Shown in pieces: positions 6,087-27,774 of a DNA stretch of 64,000 nucleotides. The DNA is from Deltaproteobacteria bacterium RIFCSPLOWO2_12_FULL_60_19 (GTDB taxonomy: Bacteria > Desulfobacterota > Binatia > UBA9968). The translations under genes were made by a program, and so were the position numbers. Where the stretch lies: assembly GCA_001798595.1 (NCBI GenBank), contig MGSS01000114.1, positions 2,034-66,033 of the forward strand, in the 5' to 3' direction. Numbering within the stretch: the stretch's first letter is position 1; every line of letters starts with the position of its first letter. The notes under the pieces were generated by a model that saw only the letters and a program-made list of their open reading frames with translations, made no database searches and was not told the DNA's origin.

Positions 6087-6296
6087 ATGAAACAATTCGT
6101 TGTAACTCTGACACCTGGCGAAGACGGCTACATCGTTGCCGAATGCCCCTCCTTGCCCGGTTGCGTCTCTCAAGGCAAGACCAAAGACGAAGCCTTGCAA
6201 AACATCAAGGAAGCCATCGAAGGCATCCTTGAGGTCCGCCGCGGGATGAACAATCCCATTGCTCCGCCGGAAGTCCGTTTCATCGAAATCGCCTGA
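6087..6296 (+). CDS. hicB: HicB-family antitoxin (UPF0150)
   Basis: 69 aa. ATG 6087 lies downstream of a strong SD (GGAAGGAGAG). Motifs: TLTPGEDGYIVAECPSLPGCVSQGKTKDEALQNIKEAIEG. The reading frame overlaps hicA by 1 nt. Confidence 0.7.
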   Translation: MKQFVVTLTPGEDGYIVAECPSLPGCVSQGKTKDEALQNIKEAIEGILEVRRGMNNPIAPPEVRFIEIA

Positions 6297-6514
6297 TGCC
6301 AGCCCCGCCCGTGATCTCGGGCCGGGAAGCGGCCAAAGCCTTCCAAAAGATCGGCTTTCTTTTTCATCACCAAACCGGCAGCCATATGATCTACTACCGG
6401 TCCGATGGCCGCCATCTTTCCATCCCCGATCATAAAGAGCTTGATCGAGGAACCTTGCGCGGCCTCATCAAAGGCGCCGGGATCACGGTCGAAGAATTCG
6501 TCAATCTGCTGTAG
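6296..6514 (+). CDS. hicA: HicA-family mRNA-interferase toxin (YcfA-like)
   Basis: 72 aa with the HicA pattern: G.E..KA..K.GF...HQTGSH.IY....GR.L.IP.H.KELDRGTLRG.IK.AGI. Confidence 0.7.
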   Translation: MPAPPVISGREAAKAFQKIGFLFHHQTGSHMIYYRSDGRHLSIPDHKELDRGTLRGLIKGAGITVEEFVNLL

Positions 6515-6935: not shown

Positions 6936-7853
6936 GTGAATGACCTGACCCAGGCCCGACCTCCCTTGTCCGTGGTGATCGGCGCTACCCAGCCGTGGCC
7001 CGAGATTCGCGGCTGCCTGGATTCGCTCTATGCGCAGGCCAGCGCCGCCGGGGTGGAAATCCTCGTTGCAGATGGAACCGGCCGCGCCCTGCCGGAAAAT
7101 TCACCCTATCCGGAAGTGCGCCGCCTCGAATCCCTCGGAGCGACCGTTTTCCAACTGCGCGCGCTCGCGATGGCCGAAGCGCAAGGCGAGATCGTCGCGG
7201 TCACTGAAGATCATTGCCGCGTGGCGCCGGATTGGTGCGGGCAGATCTTGCGTGCGCATCGCGAGTTTCCCGACGCGGCCGTGATCGGGGGCGCGGTGGA
7301 GAACGGCGCCACGGCGCGGCTGATCGACTGGGCCAATTTCTTCGCGTCGAACGACCGTTTTCTCCCGCCGCTCCCGGCCGGCCAGGATGGAACGGCGACG
7401 GGGCAAGCCAATATTTCATACAAGAGGCGCGTGATTCCCTGCGAATACCCGGCGCTCGATATCCTGGAAAAGTTTTACAATGAACGGCTTCGGGAGCGAG
7501 GCGAGAAGATCATCAACGACGGCAGAATTATCGTGGCGCACGTTCAGTCGTTGGGCTTTTGGGGCAGTTGTCTCATCCATTATCACGATGCGCGCGTCGT
7601 GGCCGGATTTTATCTCCCGCGCATCTCGACCCTTACCCGGCTGCTGCGCATCGCCAAGTGCCTGGCCTTTCCCCTGAGGGTTCTCGTCGCGACGGCGCGC
7701 ATCACTTTACGGACCATCCTCCGCAAGCCGGGCTACCGCGGGCGCATGTTGATGAGTTGCCCGTTGGTCGCCGTGCTGTTCTGCTTTCATACGGCCGGAG
7801 AGTTGGCTGGGTGCATCGCCGGTCCGGGCGATAGCCCGAGCCGGATGCGTTGA
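6936..7853 (+). CDS. GT2-like glycosyltransferase with C-terminal hydrophobic membrane anchor (candidate polyprenol-phosphate sugar synthase, Dpm1/GtrB-like topology)
   Basis: 305 aa, GTG start. The N-terminal half is a GT-A-like Rossmann region (SVVIGATQPW...EILVADGTG...VTEDHC). The C-terminal 90 aa hold about two predicted transmembrane segments. Size and topology fit Dpm1/GtrB/ArnC-type enzymes. The motifs are divergent, so the family call is tentative. Confidence 0.5.
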   Translation: MNDLTQARPPLSVVIGATQPWPEIRGCLDSLYAQASAAGVEILVADGTGRALPENSPYPEVRRLESLGATVFQLRALAMAEAQGEIVAVTEDHCRVAPDWCGQILRAHREFPDAAVIGGAVENGATARLIDWANFFASNDRFLPPLPAGQDGTATGQANISYKRRVIPCEYPALDILEKFYNERLRERGEKIINDGRIIVAHVQSLGFWGSCLIHYHDARVVAGFYLPRISTLTRLLRIAKCLAFPLRVLVATARITLRTILRKPGYRGRMLMSCPLVAVLFCFHTAGELAGCIAGPGDSPSRMR

Positions 7854-7878: not shown

Positions 7879-8958
7879 CTAGCGCGATCTGCGCAGGCTG
7901 AAATAGATCGCAGCGCTTCCCACGATCAAGACGGAAACGACGCCGGCCGTTTTGGAATGAAACGACAGGACGGCCATGAGTCCCGAAACCGCAGCGACCC
8001 CGTAGAGAACCAGAACGGCGCGCGATTCTTCCATTCCCATGGCCATGAGCCGGTGATGAATATGCTCCTGGTCCCGGCGGAAGATCGCCAGGAGGCGACC
8101 GAAGAAAACTTCGCGCCCGTTAGCGCTGCCGTTGGCCGGCGACTGCCGGAATCCTCGGCGGATCACGGCCAGCAGCGTGTCCGCGATCGGCAGAGAAAGA
8201 GCGAGAATCGGCGCGAGGAGCGGCACGCCGTCGGCTTGCTGCGCGCCCCGCACGTAGAGCACCGCCAGCAGATAGCCGACGAACATGCTCCCGGAGTCGC
8301 CCATGAAGATCGAGGCGGGGGAAAAATTGTAATAGAGAAATCCGCCGAGCGCGCCGGCCAGCGCGACCGTGAGCAGGGCGACGTCCAGCCGGCCCGTTGT
8401 CAAGCTGATGATCGATAACGTCAAAGAGGCGATCAGGCCGACGCCCGCCGCCAGGCCGTCGAGACCGTCGATCAGGTTAAAGGCGTTGGTGATCCCGATG
8501 ATCCAGAGCAGCGTGATCGGCGCGGCGAGCCAGCCGAGGAGGATCGTATTGCCGGTGAGCGGATCGATGATTCGCCCGACGCCGTGGCCGTCGGCGACGA
8601 CCATCGCCGCGGCTATCGTTTGGAAGACGATCTTGGTGATCGGCTTGAGCCTGTAGACATCGTCGGCCAGGCCGAGAGCCGCGATCAGGATCGTCCCGCC
8701 GAACGCCCAGCGCCAGCTCCAAAATAATGTCCCGAGCACGGCGATGTGCCCTGGATTCACCAGAAGGGCGAGCCCTATCGAGCCGGCCAGCGCGGCCAGG
8801 ACGGCCAGGCCGCCGAGCGACGGCACGGGGCTACGGGTGGAGCGCGGGTCGCTGCGCCGGTCGACGACGCCGAAACGCAATGCCACGGCGCGAACGAGCG
8901 GCGTCGCGAGCAAACTCAATCCGGCAGCGGTGAGTCCCAGGAGTAAGTATATCAGCAC
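7879..8958 (-). CDS. Polyprenol-phosphate N-acetylhexosamine-1-phosphate transferase (WecA/MraY/Alg7 PNPT family)
   Basis: 359 aa polytopic membrane protein, GTG start. PNPT signatures: LGLADD, NAFNLIDGLDGLAAG, FMGDSGS, and HIHHRL near the C-terminus. Divergent from the oligosaccharyltransferase gene. Confidence 0.88.
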   Translation of the reverse strand: MLIYLLLGLTAAGLSLLATPLVRAVALRFGVVDRRSDPRSTRSPVPSLGGLAVLAALAGSIGLALLVNPGHIAVLGTLFWSWRWAFGGTILIAALGLADDVYRLKPITKIVFQTIAAAMVVADGHGVGRIIDPLTGNTILLGWLAAPITLLWIIGITNAFNLIDGLDGLAAGVGLIASLTLSIISLTTGRLDVALLTVALAGALGGFLYYNFSPASIFMGDSGSMFVGYLLAVLYVRGAQQADGVPLLAPILALSLPIADTLLAVIRRGFRQSPANGSANGREVFFGRLLAIFRRDQEHIHHRLMAMGMEESRAVLVLYGVAAVSGLMAVLSFHSKTAGVVSVLIVGSAAIYFSLRRSR

Positions 8959-9343: not shown

Positions 9344-12163
9344 ATGCGGTCCATTTTAACCAAATTCAGCGGGGAAAGGGCAGTGTGCTGGGCGCTCGTC
9401 CTGGCGTGCACGGCCGTGGTTCTCTGGGTCCGAGCGCTTCCTTCGTCGCTTCCGGCCGCCGAGGAACTTACCGAGAGGATGGCATGGCGCAAAGTGCGGG
9501 AGCGGCTGGCGGCGGAACAGACAAACCGGCCTGCCGGGGAGGAGGGGAAGGCGCGCGTCGAAGAGGCGGCTCGCGAGTGGGTGGAAAATAATCGAGCTGA
9601 ATACGATGCCGCCAAAGCGTCGCTCACGGTCCAGTTGAAATCGGATATGAGCTTCGAAGCCGGAGATGGGCGGCGGTATGCCTATCTCGGCGACTTCGAC
9701 AGCTACGTGTGGCTGCGCAACGCGCGCAACTATCTCCGCCAAGGGACCACGTGCGATGCGGTGGTCGACGGCGAGTGCCGGGACAGCTACGGCCATGCGC
9801 CGGTGGGGTCTCGCATGATCTACAACCGCTCGCTCCACATCGCCGCGATTGTGGGCGTCCATAAACTGGCCACGCTGTTCAATCCCGGCTATCCTCTTTC
9901 GGCGAGCGCGTTTCTCGTGCAAGTCCTGGTCGGGGCGTTGGGGGCGCTCCCCGCCTTCTTCCTCGGCCGCCATTTTGGGGGCAATCTCGGCGGACTCTTT
10001 GCGGCGCTCCTGATATCGCTCCAGCCCGTGTTTCTCTACCGCAGCCTTGGCAGCGACAACGACGTGTGGAACGTGGTGTTGCCGTTGTTTATCGGGTGGG
10101 CGGCGCTCGCGGCGTTAAAATCCCCAAAAATCCTTCTTGCGGGAACCTACGCAGTCCTGGCAGGGGCGTGGACCGGAATCCATGCCTCAGTCTGGCGCGG
10201 GTGGGTTTTTACTTACGCCGTCGTATTGTGCGCCGCGCTCGGCTACTTGGCTCTCGTCGGCATCAGGCAGGCGATGCGTGAGGGGGTGCGGCGCCTGTGG
10301 CAGGCTGAAGAGGTTCGAAAGATCGCCTGCGTGGTCGTGGCTTACTACGTCGCCGCAGGCCTCTTTACGCTGCTCGCCGGCGCCGGCGATTCCGGCTTTT
10401 TCGGTCCGTTGCAGTCCATCGCCGCGGACCTGAGGTCGAGGCTGGACATCAGCGAGAAGGCCGCCACGCGGAACCTTTGGCCGCCGGTGTTCAATACGGT
10501 CGGGGAGCTGAGGAGGCCGTATTCGGAGGGAATCGTGCGGCTGATGGGCGGCGCGCTGTTTTTCTTCGGCGGCTGGCTTGGCCTCTTGTCGCTCCTCCTG
10601 CCCAAGCGAGGCTGGCGATGGCCTGAGTTTACTCTCGCAGGTTCCACGACGGTTCTCCATGTCTTGGGCTATTACGTTTTCGCCGCGAGCGATCTCGGCA
10701 ACGCGGTCGTTCTCTTGTTCGCCCTGTTGCCGGGGGCGTACCTGATCTTTCGGGTATGCAGCCGGAGTTCCGATCGAAACTTCGACCCCGGGCCGGCGCT
10801 GCTGATCCTTGTCTGGTTTATCGTCGCCCTCAGCATGTTTTATTACGGCACCCGTTTTTCGATTCTGTTTGTCGTCCCGTTCGGCGTTGCGTTTGGAGCC
10901 GGCGCCGATCGTGTCCGGCAGTGGCTCGCCGGGCAGATGCTCCGCATGGCGCCGCGCTTTCCGTCGATCGCGAGCGCCGCGAGCTATGCCGTTATGCTGG
11001 CCGTTCTTGCGCCGCCGGTTCTCGCCGGCTATGCGACGGCGAAGAACCATCGGCCGGACATCCATTCGGCGTGGTGGAACAGTCTAGGCAAGATTCGCGA
11101 GGAATCCCGGCCGGACGCCATCGTCAATGTCTGGTGGGACTACGGCTATTGGGCCAAGTACGCGGCCGAGCGGCGAGTCAGCCACGACGGCGGCTCGCTC
11201 CAAACCCACCTTCCCCATTGGTTAGCCAAGGCGCTGGTCGCGCCGACGGAAGCGGAGAGCCGCGGCATCCTGCGGATGCTCGACTGCGGGTCGGATGCCA
11301 CGCCTCTGCCGGAAGGCGCTCAGGGAGCCTATGGCAAGCTCAGGGCGACGGGGCTGGACGACGTCGCAGCCTACGCGATCCTGTTGAAGGTCGTTAAGCT
11401 CAGCCGGGCCGAGGCCGAGCGCTATCTTGCCGACCGGGGGCTGACCCCGGCGCAACAAAGGGACATTCTTGCCGCCACGCACTGCCGGCCTCCCGAGGCA
11501 TTTCTCGTCCTCAGCCGGGACATGATGCGCGCGGAAAAATGGATCAGGCTCGGCACGTGGGACGTGGCGAGAGCCTATCTGGCTCATCGCACGCGGCGGC
11601 TGCCGAGAGACTTGGGCGAGCAGGAGCTTCGAGATCGCTTCGACGCCAGTCCCGCCGAGGCGCGGGCGTTTTACAAGCGGCTCGCGGCGATGGAATCGGC
11701 AACCGAGATAGCCGACTACGTCGCGCCGCCGCAGCGCCTGATATCCAGGGAGTGGGTTTCGTGCGGCAGCGCGGACGGCGGAGCGGAGATGAGTTGCCGG
11801 ATTGCCGTCCCCCACGAGGGACAAACAAAAATTCTCTATTTCTTATACGACCCCGCCTTGCCAAAAGAGGGCAGGTTGAAAGACGACCAGGGCGAAGGCC
11901 GGCCGGCCGTCACTCTCGTGGCCGGAGCCGAGCGGCTGGAAGAGAGCGCCGCTCTGTCGCCGGAGTTTCCCGAGGTGGGCGTGTTGATGGACCCGGCCAA
12001 CCAGCGCATCCTCATCGGCTCGCCGTTGTTGATCCGCTCGACGATAGTGCGCCTGCTTTACCTAGGCGAGCGCTATCCCAAATACTTCAAGCCGTTCGAC
12101 CGCAGGAGCACGCTGCTCGGCGACGAAGTCACAACCTGGAAGATAGAGTGGGAGGGGGAGTAG
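9344..12163 (+). CDS. STT3/AglB/PglB-family oligosaccharyltransferase (GT-C, N-glycosylation)
   Basis: 939 aa with about 13 N-terminal TM helices and a large C-terminal soluble domain. WWDYGYW lies at residues 597-603 (nt 11132..11152). A DGGSLQTHLPHW motif follows it, resembling the eukaryotic/archaeal DNNTWNNTHI (DK-type) region. The first external loop has GDFDSYVWLRNARNY (cf. STT3 DPYFNYR). The second loop has GSDNDVWN (cf. GSYDNE). A 385-nt leader precedes the gene. Confidence 0.8.
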   Translation: MRSILTKFSGERAVCWALVLACTAVVLWVRALPSSLPAAEELTERMAWRKVRERLAAEQTNRPAGEEGKARVEEAAREWVENNRAEYDAAKASLTVQLKSDMSFEAGDGRRYAYLGDFDSYVWLRNARNYLRQGTTCDAVVDGECRDSYGHAPVGSRMIYNRSLHIAAIVGVHKLATLFNPGYPLSASAFLVQVLVGALGALPAFFLGRHFGGNLGGLFAALLISLQPVFLYRSLGSDNDVWNVVLPLFIGWAALAALKSPKILLAGTYAVLAGAWTGIHASVWRGWVFTYAVVLCAALGYLALVGIRQAMREGVRRLWQAEEVRKIACVVVAYYVAAGLFTLLAGAGDSGFFGPLQSIAADLRSRLDISEKAATRNLWPPVFNTVGELRRPYSEGIVRLMGGALFFFGGWLGLLSLLLPKRGWRWPEFTLAGSTTVLHVLGYYVFAASDLGNAVVLLFALLPGAYLIFRVCSRSSDRNFDPGPALLILVWFIVALSMFYYGTRFSILFVVPFGVAFGAGADRVRQWLAGQMLRMAPRFPSIASAASYAVMLAVLAPPVLAGYATAKNHRPDIHSAWWNSLGKIREESRPDAIVNVWWDYGYWAKYAAERRVSHDGGSLQTHLPHWLAKALVAPTEAESRGILRMLDCGSDATPLPEGAQGAYGKLRATGLDDVAAYAILLKVVKLSRAEAERYLADRGLTPAQQRDILAATHCRPPEAFLVLSRDMMRAEKWIRLGTWDVARAYLAHRTRRLPRDLGEQELRDRFDASPAEARAFYKRLAAMESATEIADYVAPPQRLISREWVSCGSADGGAEMSCRIAVPHEGQTKILYFLYDPALPKEGRLKDDQGEGRPAVTLVAGAERLEESAALSPEFPEVGVLMDPANQRILIGSPLLIRSTIVRLLYLGERYPKYFKPFDRRSTLLGDEVTTWKIEWEGE

Positions 12164-12165
12164 GT

Positions 12166-13275
12166 CTACCATCGGCCTTTCATGATCTCCTCGCAGGCGG
12201 CGACTAAGTTCTCCGCCGCGTCGAGCTCGATGGGAAGTTTGGCCGGGCTGGATGAATGCTTTCGGGATTCGTAGTCGCGGAAAAATGAGACGATCTCGGA
12301 CGCCAGCGAATTGACTTCCCACTCTTCTTCCCGGACCCACAACCCTTCCCCCGCTTCTGCAAAGGCCATCGCATTTGGAATCTGGTGATCGGAGGCGGCG
12401 GTGGAGAGAGGCACCAGCAGAGCGGGCAAATTACAGACCCGCAGCTCGGAAATGGTCTGCGATCCGGCGGAGCAGATAGCAAAATCCGCCCAGACGTAGG
12501 CCCCGGCCATGTCGTCAATAAAGGTTGTCACCGACGCGACGACGCCCGCCCGGCTGTAAGCGGAGCGGGTGGGTTCTAAAGAGACCTCGCCCGCCTGGTG
12601 CAGCACCTCAGGAACAAGACCATGCTTTGCAACTTCGGGCAGCAACGCGGGGACGCTGCGATTTAAAAAATTTGATCCGCCGGAGCCGCCGGTGACCAGG
12701 ATTCGCATGCGTGAGCCGGAGAGATCAGAGATGGTCGTTTTTTTGTGCCTGACGGAGACGATCTCTTGACGGACGGGATTGCCGGTCACTATTGTGCGGG
12801 ATTTGGGAAACGCCGATTGGGTCTTCTCGAAAGCGAGATAGATTCTGTCGACCAGACGGCCGAGCCATTTGTTAGTCAGACCGGGAACAACATTGGCCTC
12901 GTGGATCGCGGTGCGTAGTCCCAGGCTCAGCGCGGCGAGTAGGGCACCCCCCGAAGCGTAGCCTCCGAAGCCGATGACCAACTTTATTTTCTTTGTTTTA
13001 AACAGCTGTCGCGCCTGCGCCGTTCCCGCCGCCATGCTTCCCAGAGCGCGAATTTTTCCGCCGACGCCCTCGCCGAGCAGCGGCCCTCCCTGGATCAGTT
13101 CCAGATGGTAGCCGTGGGCCGGAATCAGGCGGGATTCGAGACCGCTCGCCGTGCCGATGAACAAAAATTCCGTCTCCGGGAAAATCCGGTGATACGCATC
13201 CGCCAGCGCCAAGGCCGGATAGACGTGGCCCGCCGTGCCGCCGGCGGCAATGGCTATTCTTCTCTGTGTCGCCAT
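12166..13275 (-). CDS. MurG-like GT28 UDP-GlcNAc transferase (candidate Alg13/Alg14-equivalent adding second GlcNAc; genuine peptidoglycan MurG not excluded)
   Basis: 369 aa. MurG motifs: IAIAAGGTAGHVYPALA, GFGGYASGGALLAALSLGLRTAIHEANVVPGLTNKWL, ILVTGGSGGS, AYVWADFAICSAGSQTISE..LPALLVP. There is no mraY/murD/ftsW/murC context. The gene sits divergently against the ALG1-like gene inside the glycosylation cluster. Confidence 0.75.
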   Translation of the reverse strand: MATQRRIAIAAGGTAGHVYPALALADAYHRIFPETEFLFIGTASGLESRLIPAHGYHLELIQGGPLLGEGVGGKIRALGSMAAGTAQARQLFKTKKIKLVIGFGGYASGGALLAALSLGLRTAIHEANVVPGLTNKWLGRLVDRIYLAFEKTQSAFPKSRTIVTGNPVRQEIVSVRHKKTTISDLSGSRMRILVTGGSGGSNFLNRSVPALLPEVAKHGLVPEVLHQAGEVSLEPTRSAYSRAGVVASVTTFIDDMAGAYVWADFAICSAGSQTISELRVCNLPALLVPLSTAASDHQIPNAMAFAEAGEGLWVREEEWEVNSLASEIVSFFRDYESRKHSSSPAKLPIELDAAENLVAACEEIMKGRW

Positions 13276-13304
13276 CTTATGTGGAAGTGGATTCGCGGCT
13301 CAGT

Positions 13305-13318
13305 TATATTATAATATA
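13305..13318. promoter_or_regulatory. Perfect 14-nt AT palindrome TATATTATAATATA in the 58-bp divergent region between the MurG-like and ALG1-like genes (shared -10/operator candidate)
   Basis: Seen directly in the sequence. It is the only AT-only stretch within about 3 kb of GC-rich DNA. It lies between ATG 13275 (minus strand) and ATG 13334 (plus strand). Confidence 0.4.
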
Positions 13319-13333
13319 GCCGCGCGCTCTGCT

Positions 13334-14653
13334 ATGGCATCCAAACAGGGAACCCGTGTAACCGTCATCGTGCTCGGCGATCTGGGCCGCAGCCCGCGCA
13401 TGAGATACCATGCTCTCGCGCTCGCCGACAGCGGCGTCCAGGTGGATCTGATCGGCTACGCGGGCAGCGCTCTACCGCGGGCGTTGTGCGGCCATCCGCG
13501 GATACGTTGCCATCTGATGGCGCCAATGCCGCTTCGGTTTCTCAATCGCTTTAAAAACGCGCTCTTCCCAGCCGTTTCGCTTGTGAAAATCGTCGTGCAG
13601 GCCGCGCGTCTTTTGTGGCTGCTGCTGTTCGTCGTCGGCAAGCCCGATGCCGTTCTGGTCCAAAATCCCCCGGCGGTTCCGACGCTCATGGTTGCGCTGT
13701 TGTCCGCCCGGCTGCGGTCCGCGAGGCTGATTATCGACTGGCACAATTTCGGCTACACGATGCTCGCTTTGAAATTAGGGTCGTCCAGTTTGATTGTTCG
13801 ATGGATGCGCCGGCACGAGCGGGCGTTGGGCCGCCGCGCGGACGCGCACCTCTGCGTCTCGCGCGCGATGCAGCTCGAATTAGAAAATCACTGGGGGTTC
13901 TCCAAGGCGACTCTGCTCTATGATCGCCCGGCGGCCGGTTTCATGTCCGCCGAGCCGGATGAGCGTCGCGCGCTGCTCCACCGCCTCACGTCCGTCTCGG
14001 CTCTCGTGCCCACGCAGTATCGCCTGGATGCGCCGGCGCGGCCGGCGATCCTCGTCAGCGCGACGAGCTGGACGCAGGATGAAGATTTTGATTTGCTTCT
14101 CGACGCGCTCGCTCGGTGCGATCGGGCCCTTCGACCGTTCGACGGGGCTTACGGCTCAGGGCAGGCCGTCCGCGAGCGCAAACGACTTCCGTTCCCGCGC
14201 CTCCTGATGTTAATCACCGGCGACGGTCCCCTGCGCGAGTCCTATGAAGCCCGCATCCGCGGCATGTCCCTCAACCGCATTCACGTGCAGACGCTCTGGC
14301 TGTCGCCGGAAGATTATCCGCTCTTGCTCCGGGCCGCCGACCTCGGCGTCTGCCTGCACCGGTCTTCGTCCGGGCTCGACCTTCCGATGAAAGTGGCGGA
14401 CATGCTGGGCTCCGGTCTGCCCGTCTGCGCGCTCGACTACGGCCCCTGTCTCGGGGAGCAGCTCCGACACGGCGAGAACGGCCTTCTTTTTTCCGACAGC
14501 GGCGGACTGGCGGAGCAAATCTTGGACTTATTCAATGGATTTCCGGATGAGAGCCCTTTGCTCGATCGATTGCGATGTAACATCTTAGGCTCAACCCGGC
14601 GTCGTTGGTCGGAGGAGTGGCGGGACGCGGCGTTCTCGACCATTATCGGATAG
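13334..14653 (+). CDS. ALG1-like beta-1,4-mannosyltransferase (GT33 family; chitobiosyl-diphospho-polyprenol mannosyltransferase candidate)
   Basis: The similarity to eukaryotic ALG1 covers most of the length (about 40-470 of 472 aa). Matching motifs include PRMRYHALALADSG..V.LIGY (ALG1 PRMQYHALSLA), LVQNPPAVP....ARLIIDWHNFGYTML (ALG1 LQNPPGLP...KLVIDWHNYGYSIM), LCVSRAM..L...W, ILVSATSWTQDEDFDLLLDAL (ALG1 LLVSSTSWTEDEDFSILL), MLITGDGPLRESY, and WLSPEDYPLLLRAADLGVCLHRSSSGLDLPMKVADMLGSGLPVCALDY (near-identical to ALG1). The ORF track starts at 13235. That longer form would add a hydrophobic N-terminal segment, but it would overlap the divergent gene and include the AT palindrome, so ATG 13334 is preferred. 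Confidence 0.78.
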   Translation: MASKQGTRVTVIVLGDLGRSPRMRYHALALADSGVQVDLIGYAGSALPRALCGHPRIRCHLMAPMPLRFLNRFKNALFPAVSLVKIVVQAARLLWLLLFVVGKPDAVLVQNPPAVPTLMVALLSARLRSARLIIDWHNFGYTMLALKLGSSSLIVRWMRRHERALGRRADAHLCVSRAMQLELENHWGFSKATLLYDRPAAGFMSAEPDERRALLHRLTSVSALVPTQYRLDAPARPAILVSATSWTQDEDFDLLLDALARCDRALRPFDGAYGSGQAVRERKRLPFPRLLMLITGDGPLRESYEARIRGMSLNRIHVQTLWLSPEDYPLLLRAADLGVCLHRSSSGLDLPMKVADMLGSGLPVCALDYGPCLGEQLRHGENGLLFSDSGGLAEQILDLFNGFPDESPLLDRLRCNILGSTRRRWSEEWRDAAFSTIIG

Positions 14654-14753: not shown

Positions 14754-16595
14754 TTGATGATAGCGCAACTCAAAAAATGCCGGGCGTTATTATCGCCGCG
14801 CACGCGCTGGCGCTGGGCCGCGTTGATTCCGCTGGCGGTGGCGGCGGCGGCAATGGAAGCGTTGGGCGCCGCGGCGGTCTTTTTTCTCATCAAAGTTCTT
14901 AGCGATCCGACGCAAGCGACCGCCTACCCGCTCGTCTCCTCGCTCATCGCCATGCTCCCATGGCACAGCAGCGAGACGGTCGTGCCATCGCTCACGTTCC
15001 TCGTGGCCGTTTTCTATCTGTTCAAAAACAGCCTGTTGGCCTGTGTGACGTACGCGCAGAGGAAGGTGGTGAGCGACTCCCAGGCCGCGCTGGCACGCCG
15101 GATGCTCCAGGGCTATCTCGCGCTGCCGTACGCGGCGCACCTGCGCCGCAACTCGGCGGAGCTGGTGCGCAACATGACGGATTCGGTTCACAAAACCTTC
15201 CACAATGTTCTGTTGCCGGCCTTGGGAGTCGTCACGGAGCTGTTGGTGGTCATAGGCATCATCATCGTGCTGATGGCCACGGCCCCGTGGGTGACGCTGA
15301 TCGCGGTGGGAGTGTTGTTCAGCGCGATGGCCGCGCTATTGAAGCTGACGCGCTATCGCATCGCGCGATGGGGCGCCCAGGAACAGGGGCTGAGAAAGGA
15401 CACGCTCCAGAGTTTGCATCAGAGCATGGGCGGGCTGAAAGAGATCAAGGTGATGGGTCGCGAGCGATTCTTCTACGCCAGGTTTTCCCGCTTGCAGCAA
15501 GCGCTCGCCGACGTCACTTGTTTTTATGAAACCCTCGCTTACATCCCTCCGCTCCTGGTGGAGATGATCTTCGTCTTCGGCATGGTGGTGGTGATCCTGT
15601 CGATCACGGCGCGAGGCGGTCCGGGAGAGAACGCCATTCCGCTGCTTGGGCTTTGCGCGTACGGCGGCTTCCGGGTCATGCCGGCCGTGAACCGGGTTCT
15701 TAGGCATTTGAACCATATCCGGTTCGGCACGGCGGCGATCGATCAGCTTTACCGCGACCTCAAGCTGTTCGACGACAATCCCGGCGGCGGTCTAGGTCCA
15801 TCCGGGGAAAAAGGCACCCGATTCGCGGATCGGATCGTGCTCGAGCGGGTACGCTACACCTACGAAGGCAGCGCGACGCCGGCCCTGCGCGAGATCGACC
15901 TCACTATTCGTTGCGGCGAATCCGTTGGGATTGTCGGTCCAACCGGCTCGGGGAAAAGCACCTTGATCAATGTCATCCTCGGCCTCCTGCGTCCGTCGTC
16001 GGGACGGCTGACGGTCGATGGCAGGGATGCCTTCGATAATCTCCGTCTCTGGCAGCGCAAAATCGGCTTTGTGCCGCAGGAGATCTATCTCACCGACGAC
16101 AGCCTGCGCCGCAACATCGCTTTTGGGCTGGAGGACGAAGAGATCGACGAGCGACAGGTGAAAGCGGCCATCCGCCTGGCGCAGCTCGAGGACCTGGTAG
16201 CGTTGTTGCCGCTCGGCCTCGACACCGTAATCGGCGAACGGGGCATACGGCTGTCGGGCGGCGAGCGCCAGCGCGTGGCGATCGCGCGGGCGCTCTATCA
16301 CGAGCCGGAACTGCTGGTGTTCGACGAAGCGACCTCGGCCTTGGACAACCAGACCGAACGCGCGGTCTCCCGCGCGATCGACGCCTTGCAAGGCAACAAA
16401 ACTCTGATTCTTATCGCCCACCGGTTGAGCACCGTGCGCAAGTGCGGCCGCCTGATATTTTTGTGCGCCGGCCGGGTGGCCGGCAGCGGCACCTTCGAAC
16501 AACTGTTGCAGACCAACAGAGAGTTCCGCGAGCTGGTCGCCAGCTACGATCCCGCCGACGCCGCTGCTACCGAGATCCCGCCGGGCCGGATGTAG
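14754..16595 (+). CDS. ABC exporter, fused permease plus ATPase (MsbA/PglK/Wzk-like; candidate lipid-linked oligosaccharide flippase)
   Basis: 613 aa. The N-terminal domain has six TM helices. Walker [13 protein letters not shown] signature [15 protein letters not shown], Walker [13 protein letters not shown], and the H-loop are all present. Confidence 0.85.
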
Positions 16596-17745
16596 ACGCG
16601 GCATCGAATTCGTTTACGATTTCCCGGATGCGGCGGATGAAATGATCGACGGAGAACAACGACTTCTGCCCGCTTAAATGGGAGCGCAGAGAGAACCGCA
16701 AGTCCGCGTCGGTCATCGCCCGGATAATTTTTGTCGCCGCCTCCTCACGTGTCCCGTATAAGAGACGATCCTCTTTTCCGATAATTTCCGTCAGGCCGCC
16801 GCCGCGGGGGGCGAAGACGATGCAGCCCCCCTGGATCATCTCCGCCACCGCCATCCCGAAGTGCTCCTCTTCCATGCCGTGAATGCCGTAGCGGTGGGTC
16901 GAGACCAACCGGACGAGCCGTTCGCGCGGGACATCCTCTTCAAAAAAGATCCAAGAGGCGTTGGCTCGCACGCGCCGCAGGATGCGCTCGTAGTAATGTC
17001 GGGGATCGTCGCGGCTGCCTATAAGGTGCAGATGGAGATCGGAGCCGCCGCTTCTCAGCCAGGCCAGAATGTCGATAATCTTATCCAGTTCCTTTTCGGG
17101 AGCGATCCGGCCGATGCAGACGAAACCGTTTTCACGCTCCTGCCACGGGATGTCGGGAAAATCGGCGGCAATGGGCGGGTAAAGCACGATGCTTTCGATG
17201 CCATGCCGCTCTCTCACTTTGCTGCCGGTCCAGGCCGAGTTCACGAGGGTGAGATTCTGCCGCATCTGGTCAAAGGAAAATCCCGCAACCTGCGCGCACA
17301 AGCGATGATAGGCGTTCACCACACCCGGAAAGCGGTGGTACCAACTTAAGTCCGCCGGCGGACGGGGCAGGCACGCCCACGGGAAATGGATATATTGGAT
17401 TCCAGGACGGCCAAAGTCGGCTTCGTTGTTGGCCGTGATGATAACGTCATAATCGTTCTTCAACTTTTTGCAGAAGCGCAGCAAGAGATGGTTCTTCAAC
17501 AAGCTTGCCGGCGTGGGAACCAGGGCCAGGAGCCGGCGCAGAGCCGGGGGGACGCCATAGGCCCGGAAGTCCGCCGCGCTGAGCGCGGTGCCGTAGTAAC
17601 GATTGATCGAGTCGAGGTGGACGGGCTCCCACGTCAGCAGCGAAACGGCGTGGTCCCGTTTCAGGGCCTCGACGATCCAGACGGCGACCCCATTGCCTCC
17701 TCCCGGCGGCTGCATCGACGGCTGAACCAGCAGAATTGTTTTCAT
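16567..17745 (-). CDS. GT4 (GT-B) glycosyltransferase, Alg2/Alg11-type mannosyltransferase candidate
   Basis: Track ORF 16567..17811. The preferred start is ATG 17745 (MKTILLVQPS...PPGGGNGVAVW), which matches the GT4 N-terminus. The C-terminal EEHFGMAVAEMIQGGCIVFAPRGGGLTEII matches the GT4 E.FG...E.M..G.P.....GG..E motif. A 29-nt convergent 3' overlap with the ABC gene is present. Confidence 0.72.
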   Translation of the reverse strand: MKTILLVQPSMQPPGGGNGVAVWIVEALKRDHAVSLLTWEPVHLDSINRYYGTALSAADFRAYGVPPALRRLLALVPTPASLLKNHLLLRFCKKLKNDYDVIITANNEADFGRPGIQYIHFPWACLPRPPADLSWYHRFPGVVNAYHRLCAQVAGFSFDQMRQNLTLVNSAWTGSKVRERHGIESIVLYPPIAADFPDIPWQERENGFVCIGRIAPEKELDKIIDILAWLRSGGSDLHLHLIGSRDDPRHYYERILRRVRANASWIFFEEDVPRERLVRLVSTHRYGIHGMEEEHFGMAVAEMIQGGCIVFAPRGGGLTEIIGKEDRLLYGTREEAATKIIRAMTDADLRFSLRSHLSGQKSLFSVDHFIRRIREIVNEFDAASTSGPAGSR

Positions 17746-17971
17746 CGGAGAACTTGAGATGCGAGTGACTTGCAATCCGTGCGCCTCGCGCCACGGAAAC
17801 TTAGCACACAAAACGAAAGATTGTGAACTGCCGGGGCTTCGCGGGTGAGCATCTCCGTCGCCGCGTTACGGTTTGGCCTTGACTTAGGCGCGGTTGTTCC
17901 CTACTCTTTTTTCTGAGTTTGGTTACTTACGGGACTTTGAGTCGCCGGCTTCGGCGTTCCGGCCAAAAAAC

Positions 17972-25454: not shown

Positions 25455-26570
25455 TTAGGACTCTTCGGAATTGGCGTAGAAATAGAGCGCCACCATGGCC
25501 ATGGTGATGTTTGGGATCCAGGCGGCGATCCAGCCGGGCAACGCGCCGCTGTGGCCGAGCGAGAGACTGAAGGCCCGCAGGAACCAGTAACCGAAGCCGA
25601 TCAGCATCGTCAGGCCGAAGCTGATCGCCAACCCTCCGCTGCGGCCGTGGCGGACGGCAAAGGGAATCGCCAGAAGGACCATGAGAAGAGGAATGAAAGG
25701 GACCGCCATCTTCGCTTGGAGATCGACCCGCTGTTCCGTGGTGTCTATCCCCTTGTCGCTCAAGTCGGCGACCTGCCGGCGAAGGTCGAAGAAACCGAAC
25801 TCCTCCGGGTCGCGCGCGAGGAGCTTTAAATCTTCGGGGGTTTCGGCGATGGCAAGTACAGTGTCGGCTTTGCGCTGCATCATGGTGCCGTCGGGGAGAA
25901 AGAGCCATTCAGAGCCGTTTTTTACTTCCCAGTGGGAGCCGTTCCAGGTCGCCGCCGGCGCCTCGATCAGGCCGCGCAGCGTAAAATCCCGGTTCAGGAG
26001 AAATATCGACACGCCCTCTAAGACGGTCTTTTTCCGATCGAAATAGCTCACGTTGATGAACGCTTCCTCGGTGCGGAGCCACATGTCCTTGGTTCCGATG
26101 GCGCTTTTCGGCTCCCGTTTTTTCACCTCGGTTTTGTAGATGTACTGCGCCTCACGCGCAAAAATAGGCGCCACGGTTTCGTTCCAAAAAAAGTTTAGCG
26201 CTGAGATGACCAGCGCGCAGGCGAAGAGCGGCTGCGAGATGCGGAAGATGCTGATGCCGCCGGCGCGCATCGCGGTGATCTCCTGGCTGCGCGACAACAT
26301 CCCGATCGAGAACAGCGCAGAGAAAAGGACCGCGAAGCCGAACACCCGCGAGAGCAGGAGCGGCAGTTTGTAGGCAAAATAGCGTATCGAGGTCCAAAGC
26401 GAGGCGCCGGCCTTGAGCAGAGATTCAATCTTCTCAAAGAAATCGACAATCAGATAAAGAGCGGTCGTGCATATGAGGCTGATGAGGACGATTTTCAGAA
26501 AGCCGCGTATGATGTACCAGTCCAGGATGCCGCCGACGGGCCACGGGATGATGGATTTGATTTTTTCCAT
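25455..26570 (-). CDS. lptG: LPS export ABC permease LptG (YjgP/YjgQ family)
   Basis: 371 aa, YjgP/YjgQ topology, downstream paralog of the lptF-lptG pair. Confidence 0.7.
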   Translation of the reverse strand: MEKIKSIIPWPVGGILDWYIIRGFLKIVLISLICTTALYLIVDFFEKIESLLKAGASLWTSIRYFAYKLPLLLSRVFGFAVLFSALFSIGMLSRSQEITAMRAGGISIFRISQPLFACALVISALNFFWNETVAPIFAREAQYIYKTEVKKREPKSAIGTKDMWLRTEEAFINVSYFDRKKTVLEGVSIFLLNRDFTLRGLIEAPAATWNGSHWEVKNGSEWLFLPDGTMMQRKADTVLAIAETPEDLKLLARDPEEFGFFDLRRQVADLSDKGIDTTEQRVDLQAKMAVPFIPLLMVLLAIPFAVRHGRSGGLAISFGLTMLIGFGYWFLRAFSLSLGHSGALPGWIAAWIPNITMAMVALYFYANSEES

Positions 26571-26577
26571 AGGGAGC

Positions 26578-27774
26578 CTAGAGGGCTCGCGGTTGCCTGA
26601 GACCCGCGAACCGGCGCCTCAGGTGGAAGGACAGGTCCTCCAGCTTGCTTTGGATTAAAAACGGCGATTCCTTCAGCGCCTTTCTGAAAAAATGGGCGGC
26701 GATCAGAGCCAGGACGATGTTGGGGAGCCAGGCGGCCAGGGCCGCCGGCAGGAGCTCCCGCGAACCGAGCGCCTTGCCGGCGGAGAGCAGTCCATAGTAG
26801 ACCAACAGCCAGGTAAGGCAGAGCGCAAAGCCCCACGAGCGGCTGGCGCGGGAGCGGGTCGGCACGAGGACCAGTGAAACCGCCAGGAGGGCCAAAGCCA
26901 GCGGGGCGAAGGCAAAGGAGAATCTTAAGTGCAGCTCCATGAGTTCCACCGTGAATCTCTCGCCCTGCTCCTGCTTGAGCTGGATGGTTTTTCTCAGGCG
27001 GCGCAGCGACATCTCCTTGGGCGAGGGATCCTGGGGACGCGCGGGGCCCAAAACTTCCGTGGGGTCGAGCTTGAAGTCGTAGGTGTTGAATCGCGTGCGG
27101 CTGAAGCCCGGTCGCTTCGCCTCTTTTTCATAAACGGTGCCTTCGAACAGCCGGAAATTGATGGTCTGCGACTCCTCGTCGGAAAAAATGAAGGCCACCT
27201 TGCTGAAAATGTCTTGCTCCCTGTCCACCCGGCGGCGGTCCACGATCAGCACGCCTTTTGCGGTTTCCCCAGGCGGAACCAGCTCTTCGATGTAGATCAG
27301 AACCTTGGGAAAATCGTCGTTGAAAACTTTTTCCTTAAGTTCGCTTGTGACGCGCGTCTTGGCGATGTTATACAACGCCTTTCTCATGGCGGTATTCGCC
27401 GCGGGCCTTACCTGGGTGGTAATGATGAGCGCGACCACGGAGACTACGAGGGCGATGACCGCTACCGGCCAGACGATCTGAACGGGGCTGACGCCGGAGG
27501 CTTTGAGGGCGAGGATCTCGTGATCGCTCGCCAGCCTGCCCAGCCCGAGAAATATCCCAAGGAGGAGCGCCATGGGCACGGTGCTTTCCAGAAACGTCGG
27601 AAGAATGAGCGCGAAAAGCTTGCCGATTTGCGCGAACGACACGCCGCGAGTTACGACCATATCTACGAGCTTGAGCAGGCGGGCGATCAGGAGAATAATC
27701 GTAAACGCCATCAGTCCGAAGAGGAACGGCGGCAGAATCTCCCGGGCGATGTAAAAACCTAATGTGCGCTTCAC
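26578..27774 (-). CDS. lptF: LPS export ABC permease LptF (YjgP/YjgQ family)
   Basis: 398 aa. The N-terminus YIAREILPPFLFGL...LLIARLLKLVD is typical of LptF/LptG. Upstream member of the pair. Confidence 0.7.
   Translation of the reverse strand: MKRTLGFYIAREILPPFLFGLMAFTIILLIARLLKLVDMVVTRGVSFAQIGKLFALILPTFLESTVPMALLLGIFLGLGRLASDHEILALKASGVSPVQIVWPVAVIALVVSVVALIITTQVRPAANTAMRKALYNIAKTRVTSELKEKVFNDDFPKVLIYIEELVPPGETAKGVLIVDRRRVDREQDIFSKVAFIFSDEESQTINFRLFEGTVYEKEAKRPGFSRTRFNTYDFKLDPTEVLGPARPQDPSPKEMSLRRLRKTIQLKQEQGERFTVELMELHLRFSFAFAPLALALLAVSLVLVPTRSRASRSWGFALCLTWLLVYYGLLSAGKALGSRELLPAALAAWLPNIVLALIAAHFFRKALKESPFLIQSKLEDLSFHLRRRFAGLRQPRAL

Follow-up and report, generated by a model that had tools for sequence, protein, structure and literature searches.

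A MurG-type gene paired with an ALG1-like gene in Binatia: a plausible chitobiosyl-PP-undecaprenol synthase

The stretch of DNA analyzed here (64,000 nucleotides of contig MGSS01000114.1 from Deltaproteobacteria bacterium RIFCSPLOWO2_12_FULL_60_19, hereafter the window) carries a gene for a MurG-type glycosyltransferase (OGQ79729.1) outside any division and cell wall (dcw) gene cluster and head-to-head with an ALG1-like gene (OGQ79730.1), which raises the question of what a peptidoglycan enzyme is doing beside a homolog of a eukaryotic N-glycosylation enzyme. A first-pass annotation of this DNA had described the pair and proposed that the MurG-like enzyme makes the chitobiosyl-diphosphate (PP)-lipid for its neighbor. 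The observation is confirmed, and the interpretation is plausible and appears considerably strengthened by comparative genomics. On balance we favor the reading that the protein is a dedicated, MurG-derived paralog serving as the chitobiosyl-PP-undecaprenol synthase of the lipid-linked-oligosaccharide pathway for N-glycans, with a separate housekeeping murG presumably located elsewhere in the genome. How N-glycosylation arose in eukaryotes is a matter of debate. An archaeal source is usually assigned to Alg7 and Alg13/14, and ALG1 had no known prokaryotic relatives as of 2016 (Lombard 2016, PMC4973528), before a preprint described bacterial ones (10.1101/2025.10.15.682550). No published account of the gene cluster reported here, or of a glycosylation role for a bacterial MurG homolog, was found in the searchable literature.

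Family membership of the MurG-like protein

Judged by its sequence, the window protein is a member of the bacterial MurG family (glycosyltransferase family 28, GT28) and not of the Alg13/14 family. Both GT28 Pfam domains are present (PF03033, N-terminal, 3e-32; PF04101, C-terminal, 5.8e-29), and they were the only matches at E <= 1e-3, with none to the Alg14 family, whose N-terminal domain family we take to be PF08660. The NCBIfam murG equivalog TIGR01133 is matched with 266.5 bits against a cutoff of 250.25, the top PDB sequence matches are the MurG proteins of E. coli (1F0K, 3e-59) and P. aeruginosa (3S2U, 1e-57), and NCBI annotates the protein as MurG. Identity to E. coli MurG is about 40%, judged by eye from the printed alignment, and reaches 51-52% with the dcw MurGs of metagenome-assembled genomes (MAGs) labeled Myxococcota. 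An N-terminal transmembrane anchor was not apparent in the sequence when inspected by eye, with no predictor.

The MurG motifs claimed in the first-pass annotation were found, as GGTAGH at residues 12-17 (Ala for the canonical Gly), TNKWL at 134-138 and GGSGG at 196-200. Its claim of a setting outside the dcw cluster also holds, as tblastn searches for FtsW, FtsQ, FtsA, FtsZ, MurE/F and MraY revealed no dcw gene in the window. Because yggS and yggT, which lie in the left part of the window, often follow ftsZ, a dcw cluster was sought to the left of the window as well, and an opp transporter was found there instead. On the other hand, the suggestion that the gene is a fused Alg13/14 counterpart stands as a functional analogy at most, given the identity to dcw MurGs and the lack of an Alg14 match; in kinship the protein is no nearer to Alg13/14 than other MurGs are.

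The ALG1-like partner and the conservation of the pair

The divergent neighbor is annotated by NCBI as a hypothetical protein. Dozens of its homologs are named beta-1,4-mannosyltransferase by JGI, a product name that corresponds to ALG1 in KEGG, and an active Binatia homolog has been published, both of which support the label "ALG1-like" used in the earlier annotation. Taxon labels on these homologs are Binatia, Binatus, Binatales or the older "Deltaproteobacteria". The AlphaFold model of the protein (predicted local distance difference test score, pLDDT, 88) has a GT-B fold; a fold search with this model against the PDB, which is without an ALG1 structure, returned generic GT4 folds only.

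According to the preprint, ALG1 homologs outside eukaryotes occur in bacteria only, and homologs taken from Gammaproteobacteria, Polyangia and Binatia rescue yeast alg1 by complementation and turn N-acetylglucosamine (GlcNAc)2-PP-phytanyl into a Man-GlcNAc2 product that is extended by human ALG2; gene clusters, oligosaccharyltransferase (OST) and MurG in these bacteria are not mentioned, nor is the pathway stated (10.1101/2025.10.15.682550). OGQ79730.1 may be the ortholog of the published active Binatia homolog. Because that Binatia homolog mannosylates GlcNAc2-PP-lipid (10.1101/2025.10.15.682550), a maker of chitobiosyl-PP-lipid is needed, and the MurG-like enzyme is the only conserved glycosyltransferase of the cluster with suitable chemistry.

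Hundreds of MurG homologs were retrieved by searching a large protein collection, and a neighbor-joining (NJ) tree of these homologs comprises two groups, a compact, dcw-linked clade A and a large clade B that contains the window protein. A metagenome scan with the clade B alignment added 80 loci, and 107 loci were scored by tblastn with reference proteins. In 50 of the 107 the MurG homolog (36-100% identity) was found without any dcw gene, whereas in the 52 dcw-context loci, most of them with ftsW detected directly upstream, identity of the MurG to the window protein never exceeded 50.6%. The ALG1-like gene is the immediate upstream neighbor in 32 of the 40 clade loci with a usable upstream flank, 30 of these 32 being divergent. 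Where more than 3 kb was available on both sides (n = 15), an STT3-family OST gene was present in 14 loci, the ALG1-like gene in 14, an ATP-binding cassette (ABC) exporter in 10 and a GPT-like phosphotransferase in 6. Pairwise identities of the MurG-like and ALG1-like proteins co-vary across 22 loci (r = 0.88), and this co-variation and recurrence imply that the pair is an old, co-evolving unit and not a chance juxtaposition. The recurrence of the pair down to 36% identity, the near-constant presence of STT3 and the activity of the neighbor's family on GlcNAc2-PP-lipid thus lend good support to the role proposed in the first-pass annotation.

Individual look-ups agreed with the survey (P and L numbers are our own handles). 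Five in clade B (P0012, P0033, P0047, P0087 and L114, the last a 2.0-Mb contig) all lay beside STT3 and GT4 genes, with non-syntenic flanks, while four out of four in clade A (P0054, P0174, P0149, P0165) lay in dcw clusters comprising ftsI, a murE-murF fusion, mraY, ftsW, murG and ftsQAZ; P0219, just outside clade A, is also dcw-linked. The P0087 subgroup was considered as a hidden dcw copy and rejected, being STT3-linked too. In the species collection the closest genome is that of a "Candidatus Binatia bacterium" (a MAG), which carries the same cluster at 82% identity.

The neighborhood would apply equally to an N-acetylhexosamine (HexNAc) transferase working at another step of N-glycan assembly, on a later sugar or on a first sugar other than GlcNAc. 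Such an enzyme would agree with the sub-cutoff scores of the GPT-like protein, which do not fix the first sugar, and with the 8 of 40 clade loci that lack an adjacent ALG1-like gene, most of them with STT3, and with L122, a P0087 variant with a shorter GT4 in place of the ALG1-like gene. We nonetheless consider it improbable, as the G-loops typical of enzymes acting on the first PP-linked sugar are invariant and the tightest and most conserved partner is the ALG1-like protein, whose published substrate is GlcNAc2-PP-lipid. In the cluster-linked clade these pyrophosphate-binding loops are conserved together with T16, H19 and Y106, listed in a published review as Lipid I/pyrophosphate contacts.

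The same linkage bears on the idea of a back-up Lipid II synthase with no functional tie to glycosylation, for which MglA of actinobacteria provides the model. Streptomyces and Kitasatospora commonly have MurG-like genes that are not part of the dcw cluster, and one such gene, whose product has both GT28 domains, can take the place of MurG as Lipid II synthase (PMC8092295). However, identity between MglA and MurG is only about 31%, and no linkage of MglA to OST or ALG1 genes is reported (PMC8092295), whereas linkage to ALG1-like and STT3 genes is the defining conserved trait here, with strong co-variation with the ALG1-like protein, which makes a back-up enzyme very hard to credit.

Arg261 and the descent of the cluster-linked clade

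Of the 123 dcw MurGs used as a reference set, 41 represent diverse phyla and 82 belong to clade A; 36 positions are at least 88-90% invariant in this set. The 141 sequences of clade B keep 35 of them, the exception being Arg261 (E. coli numbering, used throughout this section). This residue is Arg in 123/123 dcw MurGs, whereas in clade B it is Cys in 82 sequences, Arg in 39 (28%), Ser in 15, and Gln, Thr or Pro in the remainder; the window protein has Ser269 at the equivalent position. Clade B lineages retaining Arg261 branch early. Among the positions kept are H19, E126, N128, R164, S192, E269, H/Q288, Q289 and N292, of which E269, H/Q288, Q289, N292, S192 and R164 presumably form the UDP-GlcNAc donor site, several of them contacting the donor, as in the MurG:UDP-GlcNAc structure.

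A HMMER search of 1.84 billion representatives, from which the top 150 or so were taken (147 newly retrieved), reproduced this pattern; these top representatives fall into ~70 clusters when grouped at 50% identity, a measure of clade B diversity. Arg261 was absent from 72 of the 147 (C, S, A, T, G or P instead), all 72 of which carry the clade signature Pro/Ala65 and most of which carry Leu282, while the other 75, outside the clade, all have Arg261. These comparisons indicate that the constraint on position 261 has changed in the cluster-linked clade. In MurG, Arg261 might contact whatever portion of Lipid I is specific to N-acetylmuramic acid (MurNAc). Other features were tried as clade markers and rejected: GGTAGH in place of GGTGGH, as dcw MurGs carry GTAGH too; HEAN in place of HEQN, as dcw clade A has HESN; and the TIGR01133 score, whose ranges overlap.

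A different account of these data is that the protein is the sole murG of Binatota, that is, a Lipid II synthase that left the dcw cluster in the ancestor of the phylum and now either serves two acceptors or is merely co-located with the N-glycan genes. Several results fit this account and weigh against a dedicated paralog. The window protein passes the equivalog cutoff, and the resemblance to MurG is nearly equal in the two clades (239-278 bits with TIGR01133 in clade B, 275-296 bits in dcw clade A), even if some cluster-linked members miss the cutoff (P0053, 248.5 bits; the L114 copy, 239.2 bits). The retention of 35 of 36 invariant positions points the same way. In the NJ tree, clades A and B are jointly monophyletic (94% bootstrap), but clade B alone is supported by 30-45% only. 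The nearest outside relatives are the dcw MurGs of Myxococcota-labeled MAGs, at ~50% identity, for which vertical descent between related phyla could be the explanation. All named homologs with the cluster are Binatia, and the G+C content of clade B loci (0.56-0.74) lies inside the range published for Binatota (53-73%) or borders on it, so clade B, which may be confined to Binatota, could be the orthologous murG of the phylum. The homologue searches revealed no other MurG of at least 45% identity labeled with the same MAG, and no dcw-linked second murG from a Binatia genome turned up in searches that were not aimed at one. Furthermore, a search of the readable literature found no documented role for MurG Arg260/261, so that the loss of Arg261 cannot be linked to the acceptor on that basis.

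Set against this, Arg261 is invariant in all sampled dcw MurGs and freely substituted in clade B, and sequence diversity is far greater in clade B (mean within-group distance of 0.80, against 0.50 in clade A; distance to the outgroup, slightly larger at 1.44 vs 1.33). The gene also accompanies the ALG1-like and STT3 genes through many rearrangements, which implies that it works in their pathway, with or without other functions. Finally, a phylum-wide loss of the ftsW-murG adjacency would be unusual, the other 52 sampled MurG loci all being of the dcw type. Taking both sides together, we regard the sole-murG account, the main alternative, as rather unlikely, and a dedicated paralog acting on GlcNAc-PP-lipid as the better description of the gene.

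Tetranucleotide signatures were not informative on whether L007, L115 and L124, all of them dcw loci, belong to Binatia, because unrelated Gammaproteobacteria correlate equally well (about 0.8). The supplementary tables of the Binatota genomics paper contained no occurrences of KEGG orthology identifiers for murG, ALG1 or STT3. The few taxon names within clade A are Myxococcota, Myxococcales, Deltaproteobacteria and Pseudomonadota. The clade A dcw clusters examined (L007, 4527-7520; L124, 4588-7587; the P0149 contig) encode a fused MurE-MurF of ~1000 aa and have the gene order mraY-ftsW-murG-ftsQ, with no murD, murC or murB between. P0212 (EukProt tig00021795_g23530.t1, 509 aa) is a MurG homolog derived from a eukaryote, with a ~65-residue N-terminal extension resembling a targeting peptide. 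Its nearest group is the Myxococcota-type dcw clade A, at a mean identity of 52%, and Arg261 is retained. In another lineage, L096 (10001-13228; also L093, L097 and L099) encodes a 696-aa MurG fused to C-terminal HEAT repeats; a gene of the MraY/WecA family follows directly, with no ftsW nearby. In L031 the HEAT repeats are encoded separately, by a gene immediately upstream of the MurG-like one.

The gene cluster and the proposed pathway

Pfam and NCBIfam searches place the MurG-like/ALG1-like pair at the center of a cluster of seven genes (Table 1). The first-pass annotation recognized the pair but overlooked its wider setting, with genes for an STT3-family OST, a GPT-like phosphotransferase and an ABC flippase on its flanks.

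Table 1. Features of the cluster within the window (positions counted from the first nucleotide of the window).
Feature	Position	Strand	Size	Accession, matches and remarks
GT2-family glycosyltransferase, cluster edge	6936..7853	+	305 aa	Pfam Glycos_transf_2 2.9e-07
WecA/GPT/Alg7-like polyprenyl-phosphate HexNAc-1-phosphate transferase	7879..8958	-	359 aa	Pfam Glycos_transf_4 5.9e-43
STT3-family oligosaccharyltransferase	9344..12163	+	939 aa	Pfam STT3 1.4e-25, STT3-PglB_core 2.4e-05
MurG-type GT28 glycosyltransferase	12166..13275	-	369 aa	OGQ79729.1; proposed UDP-GlcNAc:GlcNAc-PP-undecaprenol beta-1,4-GlcNAc transferase
Divergent intergenic region	13276..13333		58 bp	probably shared promoter/operator DNA
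ALG1-like (GT33/GT4-fold) beta-1,4-mannosyltransferase homolog	13334..14653	+	439 aa	OGQ79730.1; Pfam Glyco_trans_4_4, Glyco_transf_4, Glycos_transf_1
ABC exporter, MsbA/PglK type	14754..16595	+	613 aa	Pfam ABC_membrane + ABC_tran
GT4-family glycosyltransferase (Glycos_transf_1)	16567..17811	-	longest ORF 414 aa, gene callers 392 aa	Pfam 3.3e-13

In the pathway that we propose, the WecA/GPT-like enzyme would load GlcNAc-1-P onto undecaprenyl phosphate, and the MurG-like enzyme would use UDP-GlcNAc to add a beta-1,4-linked GlcNAc, yielding chitobiosyl-PP-undecaprenol. The chemistry of this second step, down to the use of a pyrophosphate-linked acceptor, would be that of MurG itself, with GlcNAc instead of MurNAc-pentapeptide as the acceptor sugar. 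The divergent ALG1-like enzyme would then attach a beta-1,4-mannose, further glycosyltransferases would lengthen the glycan, the ABC transporter would flip it through the membrane, and STT3 would pass it to Asn residues of periplasmic or envelope proteins.

The phosphotransferase scores 107.5 bits with the NCBIfam WecA model and 75.6 bits with mraY (TIGR00445, cutoff 192), all its scores being below the equivalog cutoffs, and its PDB matches are MraY (5JNQ, 7e-14) and human DPAGT1 (about 1e-6). Since the TIGR00445 score is far under the cutoff, the protein is not a canonical MraY, and the presence of a non-MraY phosphotransferase in the cluster supports the N-glycan reading; its product would be GlcNAc-PP-undecaprenol. 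The STT3 homolog has both the membrane domain and the WWDYG motif that characterize its family (VNVWWDYGYW), along with the acidic motifs GDFDSY and SDNDVWN, and its sole PDB sequence match is the C-terminal domain of P. furiosus AglB (3e-4). The exporter scores 297.7 bits with MsbA and 279.8 bits with PglK, both under the equivalog cutoffs, and would be the lipid-linked-oligosaccharide flippase. The GT4 protein, a candidate later mannosyl/hexosyl transferase, has an 85% identical copy in L009, the Binatia locus of 82% identity, and the GT2 gene is found at the same place in ENA copies of the contig; neither of these two proteins matched a solved structure by sequence.

With E. coli MurG (1F0K/1NLM; TIGR01133) the window protein shares the two-domain GT-B architecture, the Pfam domains, the G-loops and the UDP-GlcNAc-contacting residues; it differs in belonging to a clade that is without ftsW or dcw neighbors in 50 loci and is set among STT3 and ALG1-like genes, in which Arg261 is not conserved and Pro65 and Leu282 are signatures, and its acceptor would be GlcNAc-PP-lipid and not Lipid I. 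Alg13/Alg14 would share the proposed reaction and the position in the pathway, right before ALG1, but form a heterodimer, whereas the window protein is a single chain lying within bacterial MurG. Distant homology links Alg14 to the N-terminal half of MurG and Alg13 to the C-terminal half, and trees set both apart from bacterial MurG (PMC4973528). Agl24 of Sulfolobus acidocaldarius is a single-chain enzyme of MurG fold that makes GlcNAc-beta-1,4-GlcNAc-PP-dolichol (PMC8993221). A GGH motif and a conserved Glu are common to Agl24 and the window protein, but Agl24 has only ~16% identity to MurG and lacks conservation of the residues that form the MurG donor site (PMC8993221), all of which the window protein keeps; if the two have the same function, independent recruitment would follow.

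At the level of the locus, the closest parallel is the pgl system of Campylobacter (PglC/A/J/H/I, PglK, PglB), which likewise combines a phosphotransferase, cytoplasmic glycosyltransferases, an ABC flippase and an STT3-family OST. Its initiating and elongating enzymes are different, the OST of the window has no detectable sequence match to any solved PglB in the PDB, and the ALG1-like and MurG-like enzymes of the window would imply a eukaryotic-type GlcNAc2-Man core, whereas the Campylobacter N-glycan is a heptasaccharide based on diacetylbacillosamine (diNAcBac). Campylobacter PglB, at ~710 aa, is also much shorter than the STT3 of the window; among clade relatives STT3 lengths range from 546 to 987 aa, and residues 1-110 of the window protein (9344-9700) include a charged N-terminal extension of ~100 residues after the first hydrophobic segment.

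The locus provides a pathway context for bacterial ALG1-like genes, with STT3, a flippase, a GlcNAc-1-P-transferase-like and a MurG-type enzyme alongside. Should chitobiosyl-PP-undecaprenol indeed be the product, the GlcNAc2-Man core would be built natively by bacteria, a peptidoglycan enzyme would have been repurposed for protein glycosylation, and the NCBI name MurG would be wrong for the whole clade. Arg261 would then be a candidate determinant of the choice between Lipid I and GlcNAc-PP-lipid acceptors in GT28 enzymes, and glyco-engineers would gain a one-chain bacterial enzyme of soluble type with which to carry out the Alg13/14 step. The evidence seems to us evenly poised on a broader scenario, in which Binatota, and possibly a few other lineages, have a native eukaryote-like N-glycan core pathway, a duplicated peptidoglycan enzyme freed from its dependence on Arg261 represents a third independent solution for the Alg13/14 step, and this pathway was the source of eukaryotic ALG1 and ALG2.

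The head-to-head arrangement claimed in the first-pass annotation is correct to the nucleotide, with the ATG of the ALG1-like gene at 13334. Within the intergenic region, at 13305-13318, lies a perfect 14-bp palindrome composed of A and T only (TATATTATAATATA) in a genome of 60% G+C, which is conserved in L009 but not in distant loci. Three sigma-70-like matches were found in the scanned region against 0.4 expected, two of them overlapping on the minus strand, and the palindrome may represent overlapping -10 elements or an operator. Spacing elsewhere in the cluster is very tight and leaves no space for terminators: the STT3 and MurG-like genes are convergent with 2 nt between their open reading frames (ORFs), and the ABC exporter and GT4 genes, also convergent, have 3' ends that overlap by 29 nt (16567-16595).

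Some related loci carry additional genes next to the conserved set. In L031, a gene with PNGase-type N-glycanase domains (PF09112/PF09113; 16153-17097) is found within a few kb of STT3 and the MurG-like gene in another clade member, P0033, a hint that Asn-linked glycans of the GlcNAc2 type are also removed by these bacteria. In L122, a bacterial eRF1-like gene of the baeRF family (12617-13687) is directly downstream of the MurG-like/GT1 genes.

The cluster is flanked by housekeeping genes, namely yggS-yggT, RNase PH, ham1 and a hicAB pair on one side and tig-clpP-clpX-lon, lptFG, rpoBC and ribosomal protein operons on the other. The hicB-hicA toxin-antitoxin pair (6087-6514) lies between ham1 and the GT2 gene according to the gene calls of L001 and L117, and is absent from this place in L004. 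The tandem lptF/lptG genes (25455-27774) show a diderm cell with lipopolysaccharide export, so periplasmic and outer-envelope proteins are plausible targets of N-glycosylation.

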